Under the pieces are notes generated by a model. That model worked only from the letters and a program-made list of their open reading frames with translations. It was not told the origin of the DNA and did not search any database. The position numbers and the translations under genes were made by a program. Below, piece by piece: positions 42,303 through 63,021 of a stretch of 64,000 nucleotides of DNA (positions are counted from its first letter, which is position 1; each line of letters opens with the position of its first letter). Source of the DNA: a virus (taxonomy: Duplodnaviria > Caudoviricetes); IMG/VR virus record IMGVR_UViG_2799112742_000018, positions 50,065-114,064 of that record. One strand, 5' to 3'.

Positions 42303-42545
42303 TTATACTTTTACATACAGATTGCAACAGCATTTATCTTCGTTCCTGTAACCTGAGCAGGGACATTCTTTTTCCTGACTGTTGTTAGAACATGGGCATT
42401 GACCTGAACATCTTATCAAGCCCTTAAAAATACCCTCTACTACTTTTGGATTAGGATTTACTTGCCAGCCTTCCTTTGCATCTTTCTGAGCAATGCTGGT
42501 GACTGTTTTGATAACGTCTTTTGTGATGTATTTTGATACACTCAT
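42303..42545 (-). CDS. Ferredoxin-thioredoxin reductase catalytic-subunit-like protein
   Basis: NP.......GL...G.CPC...CPC...CCC.LY. Confidence 0.8.
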   Translation of the reverse strand: MSVSKYITKDVIKTVTSIAQKDAKEGWQVNPNPKVVEGIFKGLIRCSGQCPCSNNSQEKECPCSGYRNEDKCCCNLYVKV

Positions 42546-42581: not shown

Positions 42582-43304
42582 TTACGCATATTTATTTTTG
42601 TAATTAGCAACATGAGCATTTATCTTTTTGTCCTCTATTATGTCTCTAATTTTTGACATTAATCGCCTTACCTTATAATCGTCCTTCACATCAGCATTTT
42701 TTATTCTTAATGTGATAATGTGGTATTGCGATGTGATAAAGTCTCTTTTCTTGTCTTTTTGTTTTTGTTCTTTAGAAAAATGATATTCGCCATCAACCTC
42801 GATTGCAATATTGTATTTGGGAATAAAAAGATCAAAGAAAAAGACATTACCGCCATTAACACCATATTTGAATATATGCTGTCTTTCAATATGATAACCA
42901 AACCCAAGATATTTCATTTTTTTAAGTAACATTAATTCATACTTGGAAGCACATTCCTTAGCCTTTTCCTGATACTCCTTTTGCCAAGCTAATTTTTGCT
43001 CAAGCTCTTCCTCAGTAAATGCCCTTTTGATCTTCTTTTTAGACTTTTTATCATATTGGCGTTGGTATTCTTCAAGAGTTATATAATGTGTCTTTTTATT
43101 TAAGGGCATATCTTTTGTATTAGGTATAAGGCAAGCGTTAGTTACCCCTTCTCTTATCAAAGCAAATTGTTTGTCTTGGGTTAAACCTACCATCTTAACA
43201 TTAATACCAATCTCACCTTCCTGAATTGTATGTCTATTGATTACATAACATTCGGGATATTGCTTTAGAAAATCTAAAATTTGAGAATGTTCAATTTTTG
43301 CCAT
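42582..43304 (-). CDS. DUF559/Vsr-like PD-(D/E)XK endonuclease with N-terminal extension
   Basis: E......L, Q, F.DLF.....IAIEVDG.YH...Q..KD..RD, LRI.N.DV. Confidence 0.85.
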   Translation of the reverse strand: MAKIEHSQILDFLKQYPECYVINRHTIQEGEIGINVKMVGLTQDKQFALIREGVTNACLIPNTKDMPLNKKTHYITLEEYQRQYDKKSKKKIKRAFTEEELEQKLAWQKEYQEKAKECASKYELMLLKKMKYLGFGYHIERQHIFKYGVNGGNVFFFDLFIPKYNIAIEVDGEYHFSKEQKQKDKKRDFITSQYHIITLRIKNADVKDDYKVRRLMSKIRDIIEDKKINAHVANYKNKYA

Positions 43305-43338
43305 AATGATTTATTTTTTGTTAAATTTTAATATTATA

Positions 43339-43818
43339 TACAGACCGCCCTTTATCCTCCAGAAGGAAAAGAAATTCCTTCAAAAGAGAATATGAAAAAG
43401 GAATGTATAACCTTTTTCAGGCCCAAAACATCAAATATTTTATTCCTCCTACGTTGCTGGGGTTTACAAGTCCCTCTGGAGTTACCTGTTGTTAGCGGTG
43501 GAACAGAGCAGGATAGTAAGCAACGGATGTTTTTAGAGTCAAGGAGCTTTTTGTATCGGAGAGACTCCCACGGTAGCTACTGATGGAACCAATTTTTCAA
43601 TAAGCCGTTCTTTTGAAGTGAACGTAAGGCTATGCCTTGTATAAGACTTGCACGTCCCTAACGTCTGGCTTGATACAGTTTTGCCAGGAACCACTGTCGA
43701 TGTTTGGATTACCACACCTTACCAGGTTGCCATGTCCCTTACGGACTACTATCCTAATGGCATCGGATATGCTCTTTTTCTGTAGAAGAAGGATTTGATT
43801 AGAACAATAAGACCTGTA
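43339..43818 (-). ncRNA. Candidate large structured non-coding RNA (~490 nt)
   Basis: Closing helix, several long-range helices, two pseudoknots, GUAA-capped hairpin; G-U pairs favour the minus strand; no credible ORF. Confidence 0.6.
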
Positions 43819-43821
43819 GAT

Positions 43822-43935
43822 AAAAATAGGAACAACCAAAAGCCTAAAGTAGCACGCAGCTTTCAGTTGTTCCCTGTATCTCGTAGAAAAAACGATTCAA
43901 ATATGTTTTGCTTATCAATGTGCTACTAAATCTAA
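43822..43935 (-). promoter_or_regulatory. Attenuator-like leader: terminator hairpin whose loop is complementary to the leader 5' end
   Basis: Stem 43874-43859/43843-43828 plus AUUUUU; loop GUGCUACU pairs with AGUAGCAC (43927-43920). Confidence 0.65.
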
Positions 43936-43942
43936 GCGATGA

Positions 43943-43974
43943 CAAAGGTACGTACTTTATTTTAAGCTACCAAA
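43943..43974 (-). promoter_or_regulatory. Housekeeping promoter (leftward)
   Basis: TTTG-N20-TACCTTTG on the minus strand. Confidence 0.85.
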
Positions 43975-44164
43975 TAAAATTTCAAAAATCTTTCATTTAG
44001 GGTGTTAATTTAACCTTTATTCACAATACAAATATTAAATATATAATAATGTACATACGTGAAACATCTCAGCATTGTAGAGATTAAAAAGTGTTGTAAC
44101 TTGCACAGACAGAGGGGTAAAATAATACGTAAAGAAAATTTAACATAAAAAAATCTATTAAAAA

Positions 44165-44196
44165 TTTGCACAGATAAAAATTTCTTCTTACCTTTG
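44165..44196 (+). promoter_or_regulatory. Housekeeping promoter of the replication operon
   Basis: TTTG-N20-TACCTTTG. Confidence 0.85.
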
Positions 44197-44260
44197 CACT
44201 TGGTAAGAGGAAAAAGTTTCTATTCTAAGCTTTTAGTATTTGTGAAAATATGACAAAGCT

Positions 44261-44307
44261 CCAGGGATGTCCCCAACTAAGCGCATGTGTAACATCCCTG
44301 GTTTTTT
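44261..44307 (+). terminator. Leader terminator before the first replication gene
   Basis: CCAGGGATGT-21 nt loop-ACATCCCTGG plus TTTTTT. Confidence 0.7.
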
Positions 44308-44351
44308 AGAAGTCAAAGCGTTGAATTTTCTAATTCAATTTTATATATAGT

Positions 44352-44843
44352 ATGATTAAAGGTCAAGGGGCAATCAAAAAGGTAGATGGCACTCTTTATC
44401 AAGATGAGCTTCTGTCAGCCTTACACAAACTGCCTAATAACCGAGACTATGAGTTTCTGATTGTGGACAAAGAGAAGAACAGAACGTTGCCAGCATCAAC
44501 TTATCTATTTTCAGTAGTCCTACCTCAGATTTCGGAACAGTTACCTGATCATCCTCCAAAAGAGGCTCTTTACCGCTATTTTGAGGACATCTTCGCACCT
44601 CTTTATAGTGTGACTATCAACGGAGAAGAGTACGAGTACTCTGATTTGAAACGCGAAAAAATAATGATTATCAACGAAGTTTGTGAGAAAATCGTTGATT
44701 ACGCTGAGAAGAAATGGGGTATCAAAGTAATGTCTTTGGATGACCTCAGAGATTCAAAAAACTCTCAGTTGTATAGTGTGGCTTACAAACAGAACGATGT
44801 AAGCTGGGCAAAATTCCTCTCTCATCAAAAATCAAACAGTTAA
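44352..44843 (+). CDS. NinB/YbcN-like protein
   Basis: R......YLF.VV...I and ..KI..YA...WGI pattern. Confidence 0.55.
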   Translation: MIKGQGAIKKVDGTLYQDELLSALHKLPNNRDYEFLIVDKEKNRTLPASTYLFSVVLPQISEQLPDHPPKEALYRYFEDIFAPLYSVTINGEEYEYSDLKREKIMIINEVCEKIVDYAEKKWGIKVMSLDDLRDSKNSQLYSVAYKQNDVSWAKFLSHQKSNS

Positions 44844-62827: not shown

Positions 62828-62899
62828 GGTGGATTCATCTAAGGGTTAGGATTCAAGATTCTCAATCTTGCCATAGGGGTTCGAATCCCCTATCCACTA
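62828..62899 (+). tRNA. tRNA-Glu(CTC), copy 1
   Basis: Acceptor GGTGGAT/ATCCACT, anticodon arm CAAGA-TTCTCAA-TCTTG, T arm AGGGG-TTCGAAT-CCCCT; no encoded CCA. Confidence 0.95.
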
Positions 62900-62932
62900 C
62901 AAGAAAGGGGCTGAGACAGTACAAATTAATCC

Positions 62933-63004
62933 GGTGGATTCATCTAAGGGTTAGGATTCAAGATTCTCAATCTTGCCATAGGGGTTCGAATCCCCTATCC
63001 ACTA
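62933..63004 (+). tRNA. tRNA-Glu(CTC), copy 2 (identical)
   Basis: Exact repeat of copy 1, including trailing CAAGAAA. Confidence 0.95.
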
Positions 63005-63021
63005 CAAGAAAATGAATATAT

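Follow-up and report, generated by a model that had tools for sequence, protein, structure and literature searches.

Several phage RNA control units are known that head an operon of the antirepressor type, among them the c4 RNA of the P1/P7 immI operon (c4-icd-ant) and the CI RNA of phage P4. In the Salmonella prophage Gifsy-1, the read-through mRNA that precedes an antirepressor-type gene is inactive by itself and is activated by the terminated leader RNA IsrK (PMC4825925). Here we describe a locus with a similar beginning in a 64,000-nucleotide (nt) stretch of a Caudoviricetes phage genome, positions 50,065 to 114,064 of the IMG/VR record IMGVR_UViG_2799112742_000018; this whole stretch is called the window. 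At this locus a promoter and a short leader stand in front of a large structured RNA (43815-43339, minus strand), which in turn stands in front of a nuclease gene. Structured RNAs of 300-500 nt that have several pseudoknots and are in no catalogue are rare, and the earlier classes ROOL, GOLLD, OLE and HEARO each opened new biology.

Comparison of related loci indicates that the minus-strand segment 43815-43339 is a conserved, heavily pseudoknotted RNA. The comparative support is strong enough to treat it as a real RNA family, which belongs to phages of Bacteroidota (Prevotellaceae-type hosts) of the gut and rumen and is uncatalogued in Rfam. There is about an even chance, in our estimate, that the RNA is a modular cis-acting regulatory leader of an accessory or antirepressor operon, deciding whether read-through transcripts yield protein; a ribozyme and a free-standing ornate RNA remain the alternatives for its biochemical role. 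A preliminary description of the locus had seen a large, doubly pseudoknotted RNA and had proposed that it serves the adjoining nuclease as a partner or guide, or that it primes replication. It described the structure for the most part correctly, but the functions that it proposed are not supported. The parts of the RNA are as follows, where L numbers denote related loci and letters denote lineages.

43339-43815, minus strand: body of the large structured RNA, about 480 nt in the window's lineage, 91.4% identical to L004 and 99.1% to L007, with diverging flanks.
43728-43769, minus strand: pseudoknot Y/X, in which hairpin Y (43769-43765/43754-43750) has a loop (43762-43757) that pairs with 43733-43728, with a GUAA hairpin (43746-43734) in between.
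43591-43727, minus strand: middle domain, including the hairpin CGUUC/GAACG, found in lineages A-D only and absent in E-H; aligned at the level of motifs.
43545-43590, minus strand: start of the universal core, with the conserved loop GGUUCCAUCAGU; helix Pt (43590-43588/43574-43572) crosses helix Pa (43578-43575/43548-43545), with an inner hairpin Pi (43568-43565/43561-43558).
43425-43533, minus strand: stacked, covarying helices S1 (43533-43526/43432-43425) and S2 (43525-43519/43458-43452).
Inside S1 and S2, minus strand: hairpin H (H1, 43512-43509/43488-43485; H2, 43505-43502/43493-43490), the 5' strand of pseudoknot 2 (43481-43475) and hairpin h6 (43474-43472/43462-43460).
43348-43424, minus strand: variable 3' hairpins (43424-43364), the 3' strand of pseudoknot 2 (43363-43357) and a conserved purine tail, GAUAAAGGG (43356-43348).

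Eleven helices were located by fixed anchors in nine representatives, and all eleven are fully complementary in these nine although the paired sequences differ between lineages. Five further lineages each bring new matched versions of S2, Pa and pseudoknot 2, and cognate strands pair over longer runs than non-cognate strands. In a plain MAFFT alignment of nine sequences (A6), the four correctly aligned helices have 99.3% of their cells paired, compared with 16-46% for slid partners; both sides have changed in six pairs, and none of 500 shuffles reaches the observed covariation score. Among the eleven are three crossing pairings, either pseudoknots or loop-loop contacts, that are kept across lineages. 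These are Y/X (where a segment further downstream pairs with the loop of hairpin Y), Pt/Pa and S2/pseudoknot 2, and they bear out the initial picture of a large, multiply pseudoknotted minus-strand RNA. Several G-U pairs, in several lineages, are compatible with the minus strand alone, as had been noted for the window.

The number of versions through which single helices are kept is large. Y and X are each retained through six different sequences, S1 through four and S2 through at least eight: CGUUGCU/AGCAACG in the window and elsewhere CACUGG/CCAGUG, GCCAU/AUGGC, a 10-bp helix of the UUAUUGG type, UGUAGG/CCUACA, CUCUUGU/ACAAGAG and a 12-bp version. Pa covaries at all four positions (AGCU/AGCU in the window; GGCU/AGCC, GCCA/UGGC, ACAG/CUGU, GCAG/CUGC and GCAC/GUGC in others), and H1 and H2 have one covarying pair each. 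Pseudoknot 2 occurs in eight different sequences at a fixed place, 2-4 nt after hairpin H (H1) and immediately before the purine tail. Its versions are CUCCAGA/UCUGGAG (window), CAGCAAG/CUUGCUG, UAGCAAG/CUUGCUA, CUCAUC/GAUGAG, CCCAAG/CUUGGG, CCCAUC/GAUGGG, CCCAUAC/GUAUGGG and CUCAC/GUGAG.

All seven pairings listed in the preliminary description are present in the window at the positions given there, with 100% complementarity, and their comparative standing differs. Covariation across the homologues upholds the helix 43762-43757/43733-43728 (X, in six different sequences) and the stacked helices S1 and S2. The second pseudoknot, proposed as 11 bp (43481-43471/43367-43357), covaries over 7 bp (43481-43475/43363-43357); the other 4 bp are not among the supported pairs. 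For the GUAA hairpin there is one compensatory change in L004, and the hairpin is specific to the window's lineage. Two pairings are not borne out. The first pseudoknot (43755-43747/43518-43510) takes up bases of two covarying helices, Y (43754-43750) and H1 (43512-43509), and nothing corresponds to it in the other lineages; a 9-bp match within 480 nt is near chance expectation. The helix thought to close the whole structure (43818-43811/43346-43339) loses three of its eight pairs in L004 and does no better than shuffles except in lineage C. RNAalifold, run on raw MAFFT alignments, paired an AACAUC of the 43654 region with 43432-43425; this is a mis-pairing, and the comparative data favour S1.

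The absence of a protein-coding explanation was also confirmed. From the ATG of a 240-amino-acid (aa) open reading frame (ORF) on the minus strand at 43304 to the first plus-strand gene of an SbcCD/DnaE module at 44352 there are 1047 bases with no credible ORF in any frame. As the preliminary description had stated for the tract between promoter and nuclease ATG, no frame is open on the minus strand from 43974 to 43305, where all three are full of stops; a hidden ORF and an alternative genetic code were ruled out on the same ground. The GC content is 0.43-0.45 at 43400-43800 and 0.26-0.32 in the flanks, in agreement with the GC-richer tract first described. Compared with shuffles, the minus-strand fold has a z score of -2.2 and the plus-strand fold is no better than shuffles (z -0.9). 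A tmRNA or tRNA-like identity was discarded, as ARAGORN reports only two tRNA-Glu genes, elsewhere in the window; these are two identical tandem tRNA-Glu(CUC) genes at 62828-63005.

Identity to the window falls off outside the RNA. For L004 it is 91.4% over 43815-43339 and 95.1% over 43590-43348, compared with 53% in the leader and 66% in the other intergenic sequence, and the nuclease of L004 is 85% identical as protein and 84% as DNA; for L007 it is 99.1% in the RNA and 92.9% in the leader. Because the leader, the intergenic remainder and the nuclease gene all diverge more, the RNA body is the most constrained sequence of the locus. Relatives of the nuclease are few, and their contigs keep the same synteny. 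More diverged homologues, in lineages B-H, were reached in three ways: through distant homologues of the nuclease (L008, L009), through the neighbouring 163-aa protein (L017/18, L031-33) and with two motif-based DNA patterns; pattern and homologue matches were confirmed by nhmmer.

The RNA was found in about 60 IMG/VR contigs (16 + 43) of at least 10 lineages, with 37 of the newly found loci confirmed by nhmmer, and in one contig of a metagenome-assembled genome (MAG) of Candidatus Segatella albertsiae (L149). In a collection of genomes of 185,579 species the first, three-motif pattern had no match, and the second had 12 matches with one true member, the Segatella MAG. There was no match in the first nuclease-based locus search of IMG/VR, nor in the GenBank phage collection in near and distant search modes. 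Judged by record names, several source records are cattle-rumen assemblies. What all members share is a core of about 250-300 nt, which ends in the long-range pseudoknot and the purine-rich tail, 12-65 nt before the start codon of the next gene.

Upstream of the core in every lineage are a promoter, a hairpin and a terminator hairpin, and the loops of the two hairpins are complementary to each other. In the window these are:

43943-43974, minus strand: Bacteroidota-type promoter, -33 element TTTG (43974-43971) and -7 box TACCTTTG (43950-43943).
43910-43937, minus strand: leader hairpin 1, stem GCUUA/UAAGC, whose loop has the 8-mer AGUAGCAC (43927-43920), the exact complement of the terminator loop.
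43820-43874, minus strand: leader terminator, a hairpin of 15-16 bp (43874-43829) whose loop (43858-43844) has GUGCUACU (43855-43848), followed by a U-tract (43828-43820).
43820-43937, minus strand: the two hairpins together, a predicted kissing-loop attenuator; the counterparts are at 5356-5490 in L004, 4307-4455 in L008 and 4321-4475 in L009.

The promoter is the one first proposed, in its Bacteroidota form of TTTG and TACCTTTG. Between it and the large RNA the leader is about 110 nt long. The -7 box and the same leader start are kept in about 35 related loci, and the leader itself in about 35 loci of a clade of phages of about 110 kb; in lineages E and F the pair first labelled Y/X proved to be the same leader. 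The loop pair covaries from AGUAGCAC/GUGCUACU in the window to AGUAGUGC/GCACUACU in L007 and GUAGAGA/UCUCUAC in L004, and further matched versions are found in L008, L009, L031, L032, L030, L036, L107, L133, L115, L149 and L135. The matched stretch is 7-10 nt long and almost every lineage has a different version (more than 10 in all); even L007, 96% identical, differs from the window by two compensatory pairs. The terminator stem of L004 has a wholly different sequence, with hairpin and U-run retained. Swapped and still matched, the loops look like a self/non-self 'address'.

The best explanation of the minus strand from 43974 to 42303 is a single transcription unit, predicted from the promoter, the RNA and two genes behind it:

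42582-43304, minus strand: 240-aa DUF559/PvuRts1I-like (PD-(D/E)XK) nuclease of homing-endonuclease type, with Pfam and PHROG matches, predicted to be co-transcribed with the RNA; its relatives show presence, absence and replacement.
42303-42545, minus strand: 80-aa Cys-rich ORF, the last gene of the unit, 70% identical in L004 and with no counterpart in lineages B-D.

The 80-aa ORF has the cysteine clusters CSGQCPC ... CPCSGYR ... CCC and a weak match to one PHROG of unknown function; a terminator-like hairpin, reported on the plus strand, follows it at about 42300-42270. The small ORFs downstream of the nuclease are not conserved between lineages. The remainder of the divergent intergenic region (43975-44351), 66% identical to L004, contains the promoter region of the plus-strand 163-aa gene and extra hairpins, such as CCAGGGAUGU..ACAUCCCUGG near 44300-44260 and another near 44210-44175 (minus-strand reading).

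That a DUF559-type nuclease adjoins the RNA holds for the window, with weak Pfam scores (DUF559 20.5 bits at a cut-off of 20.6; PvuRts1I-like 23.9 bits); in most members of the family the gene after the RNA is not a nuclease. The protein also matches PHROG families annotated as 'homing endonuclease' and 'HNH endonuclease', and so falls among homing-endonuclease domain families. In relatives the DUF559 scores are clear, and PADLOC HEase matches L031; libraries of defence systems gave generic nuclease-domain matches only. Proceeding from this neighbour, the preliminary description had suggested a guide or scaffold RNA that forms an omega-RNA-like ribonucleoprotein with the nuclease. The order of promoter, long structured RNA and nuclease start codon is indeed that of IscB/HEARO loci, and in about 24 of about 60 contigs the gene that comes first after the RNA is a nuclease. 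Against this, RNAs that are 94% identical stand beside unrelated nucleases. L091 and L103 have such a 420-nt RNA and nothing else in common over 10 kb, in DNA or protein; the gene after it is a 160-aa DUF559 protein in L091 and a 161-aa HNH protein in L103, mutually dissimilar and with no common N-terminal domain. In L032/L033 (lineage D') the RNA is kept, with a compensatory change in pseudoknot 2, and the nuclease is deleted to about 25 codons. There is also no variable, guide-like segment besides the kissing loops, which pair with each other, and the HEARO model has no match.

A tally of the genes that follow homologous RNAs points the same way, with Rha, Bro-N/KilAC, KilA-N or RtcB instead of a nuclease in most members. 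In the largest group the RNA is followed by a full Rha (9 contigs) or by a 62-aa Rha remnant and then a Bro-N/KilAC antirepressor (at least 14 contigs); the other genes are KilA-N/KilAC, a T5orf172 chimera, RtcB, and an ORF of unknown function followed by a NUMOD4-HNH endonuclease. Regulators of the antirepressor type (Rha, Bro-N/KilAC, KilA-N) are thus the commonest cargo, as in lineage G; the window itself has the nuclease and the 80-aa Cys-rich ORF, not an antirepressor. The presence or absence of a nuclease varies at a fixed site: the order is RNA, DUF559, Rha in L208 and RNA, Rha in L107, to which the deletion in L032 and the HNH replacement in L103 can be added. From the L091/L103 swap, the L032/L033 deletion, the varied cargo and the L208 order, the nucleases behave as homing-type insertions at the 3' edge of the RNA. 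We infer that the nuclease of the window is a selfish gene of homing-endonuclease type, lodged between the RNA and the remainder of the operon, whose promoter it borrows, and not the protein partner of the RNA.

Since the same RNA precedes unrelated genes and unrelated nucleases, and one lineage lost the nuclease and kept the RNA, neither a dedicated guide RNA nor a replication primer is likely, and we regard the guide reading as very improbable. The second earlier proposal, a pre-primer or origin RNA like ColE1 RNA II under the control of a short leader RNA, is more improbable still. It drew on the position of the RNA in this phage, back to back with the SbcCD/DnaE module, and a short kissing-loop leader RNA does precede an RNA of about 500 nt. 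GC skew has no minimum or turning point at the locus, at 44 kb, and in other phages the RNA lies in unrelated contexts, beside integrases or inside accessory cassettes, and is replaced by unrelated RNAs in sister phages.

Three further observations concern the gene behind the RNA. At L116 6595-7584 and about 14 similar loci, Rha is cut to 62 codons, diverging after residue 53, with the Bro-N/KilAC antirepressor immediately after it. What is left of Rha in L133/L140 is its first 18 codons, to which a T5orf172 protein is fused. It appears that the beginning of the ORF, its first 18-53 codons, travels with the RNA. Finally, in L149 (5299-6492, the Candidatus Segatella albertsiae MAG) and L137 an RtcB RNA ligase gene directly follows the RNA, an odd pairing of an RNA repair enzyme with a large structured RNA. 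L149 also gives a probable link to hosts of the Prevotellaceae.

The slot behind the leader is not always filled by this RNA. By sequence, the non-coding segments found in it (400-700 nt) form at least four groups that show no similarity to one another. L166/L167 share the leader of L107 and have a Rha that is 98% identical, yet their non-coding segment, of about 390 nt, is a different one, the junction falling right after AAUCGGUU, and L034/L036 differ from L031-33 in the same manner. The alternative segments (390-700 nt, GC-richer) are at about 1090-1480 in L166 and L167, at about 3050-2570 (minus strand) in L036, at about 3050-2500 (minus strand) in L030 and in a group of L021/L022/L026/L037/L040/L042. 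They have no sequence similarity to the RNA of the window or to one another and no Rfam match, and may be further structured RNAs of unknown kind. In L027, L030 and L039, upstream of the 163-aa gene, DUF559 nucleases with 32-38% identity to that of L091 follow the same leader and a different non-coding segment, which in L030 contains a tail-like CAUAAAGGGGGG. L208 560-1060 is a mosaic of two RNA types. Up to GGCUCUUAUG the 5' half is identical to the L103 type; the 3' half belongs to a different type and brings its own matched S2, H2 and pseudoknot 2. The tail motif UUAGGUAGGUGAGGG is duplicated.

Such exchanges bear on a free-standing, stable RNA that acts in trans, either ornate in the sense of ROOL and GOLLD or an immunity, anti-defence or decoy RNA, with the downstream gene merely co-transcribed. 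The RNA moves as a discrete module between unrelated loci and is retained when the following gene is deleted, and unrelated large RNAs alternate in the slot as expected of arms-race cargo. The rumen origin of part of the contigs agrees with this too. Loop-loop pairings are sometimes near-palindromic (GUGGCCGC/GCGGCCAC in L092), and covariation cannot separate pairing within a molecule from pairing between molecules. What speaks for attachment to the gene is that the RNA has no terminator at its 3' end and keeps a short, fixed distance to the next start codon, that the first 18-53 codons of the ORF travel along, and that the Rfam models of ROOL, GOLLD, OLE and raiA have no match. A free-standing RNA is possible, if clearly less probable than a cis-acting leader.

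The same junction after AAUCGGUU, with its presence and replacement at a precise site, would also suit a mobile ribozyme, a self-splicing or self-processing, intron-like element in the 5' untranslated region (UTR) with, at times, a homing endonuclease gene on its 3' side. Three or four nuclease families occur there, the nuclease gene has decayed in L032, flanking codons are co-transferred, RNAs are mosaic, and the way in which S2 and pseudoknot 2 interleave is loosely reminiscent of P3/P7 in group I introns. Searches of three lineages at E up to 10 found no match to Intron_gpI, group II or GIR1. The helix order is unlike group I: here the 5' strand of the pseudoknot comes ahead of the small hairpin and does not follow a P6. 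A conserved bulged G-binding pair is lacking in pseudoknot 2, and no gene or RNA is interrupted that splicing would need to restore. We think this reading unlikely. In a bolder reading the RNA would represent a new class of large RNAs that are catalytic or assemble themselves, either a mobile ribozyme that inserts into the 5' UTRs of phage accessory operons and processes itself out of them or an RNA-only machine that reads a cellular signal, with the slot as a hot spot where phages exchange unrelated large RNAs of this kind; this is a speculative idea with a small chance of being right.

The reading we favour is the cis-acting leader. The host-type promoter would start the transcript, and the 5' hairpin loop, complementary to the loop of an intrinsic terminator hairpin, would form with it a kissing-loop attenuator. 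Read-through would yield the compact RNA of about 480 nt with its several pseudoknots, which would act in cis on the read-through transcript. With the attenuator passed, it would gate the downstream gene at the level of translation or of stability. This logic would be like that of the IsrK and c4 leaders, which guard prophage antirepressor operons. The transcript ends, the read-through and any processing are predicted from the DNA. In favour are the promoter and complementary loops upstream in every lineage, the lack of a terminator between core and ORF, the fixed distance (in about 30 contigs the next ORF begins at +298, counted from the start of the core) and the kinds of gene that lie downstream (Rha, ANT, KilA-N, T5orf172, RtcB, DUF559 and HNH).

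Several points weigh against it. No known translational leader comes near the elaboration of this fold, which has 300-480 nt and three crossing pairings. That the RNA is transferred horizontally as a discrete unit, with 94% identical copies at loci that are otherwise unrelated, would better suit a mobile element or an RNA gene that stands by itself, and the same holds for its replacement by unrelated large RNAs in the slot (L166/L167 compared with L107; L034/L036 compared with L031-33). The distance of 12-65 nt from tail to start codon is too long for classical Shine-Dalgarno occlusion, and no alternative on and off conformations were identified in the RNA. The free-standing trans-acting RNA and the mobile ribozyme stay alive as readings because the fold is so large and complex, because the RNA is transferred as a discrete unit and because unrelated RNAs alternate in the slot.

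With about 60 contigs in at least 10 lineages, the family is abundant enough for proper covariation modelling and structure determination. In phages of Prevotellaceae/Bacteroidota it sits at one defined regulatory site, and little is understood of how this group controls its genes. Three features stand out: unrelated large RNAs share a slot behind a 'lock-and-key' attenuator, several families of homing-type nucleases occur at the 3' edge of the RNA, and an antirepressor is the usual cargo. The tempting claim of a new RNA-guided PD-(D/E)XK nuclease is removed as unsupported, and the gating by RNA of the lysis-lysogeny switch and of accessory genes in these phages becomes a testable question.

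No Rfam family was found at its gathering score in the window and 16 related loci, and none reaches threshold in the window, the other lineages or neighbouring loci, which agrees with the first impression that no known family fits. At E up to 10 on five stretches the matches were at chance level besides a recurrent sub-threshold hairpin of freshwater-1 (RF02979), a 62-nt candidate small RNA from aquatic metagenomes whose function is unknown. It scores 15.4, 14.1 and 12.9 bits at the homologous place in three lineages, far below its gathering score of 72. The consensus hairpin of freshwater-1, CCUGCUCUG..CAACAGG, and its small hairpin are letter for letter hairpin H and h6 of the phage RNA; the model spans only about 60 of the 300-480 nt. 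Freshwater-1 could be one piece of a larger, related RNA; alternatively, the two may share no more than a local motif or module. A likeness to RNase P, in which GAACGGCUUAU recalls the conserved 3' strand of P4, was rejected, as the motif is a local covarying hairpin (CGUUC/GAACG; CGUUU/AAGCG) in mid-molecule and is absent from E-H.

Group I introns with homing endonuclease genes, and GIR1 before a homing endonuclease ORF, resemble the phage RNA in having interleaved long-range helices beside interchangeable HNH or PD-(D/E)XK genes and in their discrete gain, loss and mosaicism. The phage RNA differs in that the group I model (RF00028) matches neither the window at gathering score nor three lineages at E up to 10, and in that it lacks an exon context and a G-binding motif; its pseudoknot helix has neither a conserved bulge nor a conserved G-C pair. 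Its order of S2, H1, H2, pseudoknot 5' strand, small hairpin, S2', hairpins and pseudoknot 3' strand is not the P3-P4-P5-P6-P7-P3'-P8-P7' of group I, and instead of interrupting a gene the predicted unit has its transcription start at its 5' end, at the promoter, and closes before an intact start codon. The free-standing homing endonucleases of phages (T4 seg/mob; Vsr-like/EDxHD and HNH families) compare with the downstream genes alone. They too are small intergenic nucleases that replace one another by family at the same site and decay in some lineages, whereas the Pfam scores of the window protein are only weak or below threshold.

The ornate RNAs ROOL, GOLLD, OLE, raiA and HEARO share with the phage RNA the size class, many conserved helices and pseudoknots, a location in phages or prophages and, in part, a rumen or gut origin. 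The Rfam models of the first four have no match in the window and the lineages examined, nor does HEARO/omega-RNA (RF02033), and in place of an obligate partner of the IscB/IsrB/TnpB type there is DUF559, HNH, Rha, ANT, RtcB or none. The phage RNA also differs from the ornate RNAs in its constant setting, with an attenuator ahead of it and a start codon next to its downstream end.

With the c4 RNA, P4 CI and IsrK-orf45-anrP of Gifsy-1 the locus shares the promoter, the terminated leader with a loop complementary to a site on the same transcript, and the gene on the read-through. The complementary loop belongs to the leader (43937-43820) and not to the large RNA, and the antirepressor downstream is seen in lineage G (Rha, Bro-N/KilAC, KilA-N) and not in the window. 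Neither c4 (RF01695) nor IsrK has a Rfam match in the window or related loci. Bacteroidota hardly use Shine-Dalgarno pairing; with such hosts, unlike those of IsrK and c4, occlusion based on it is not expected to apply. The main difference is that c4, P4 CI and IsrK lack what this phage family has between leader and gene, a conserved pseudoknotted RNA of 300-480 nt.

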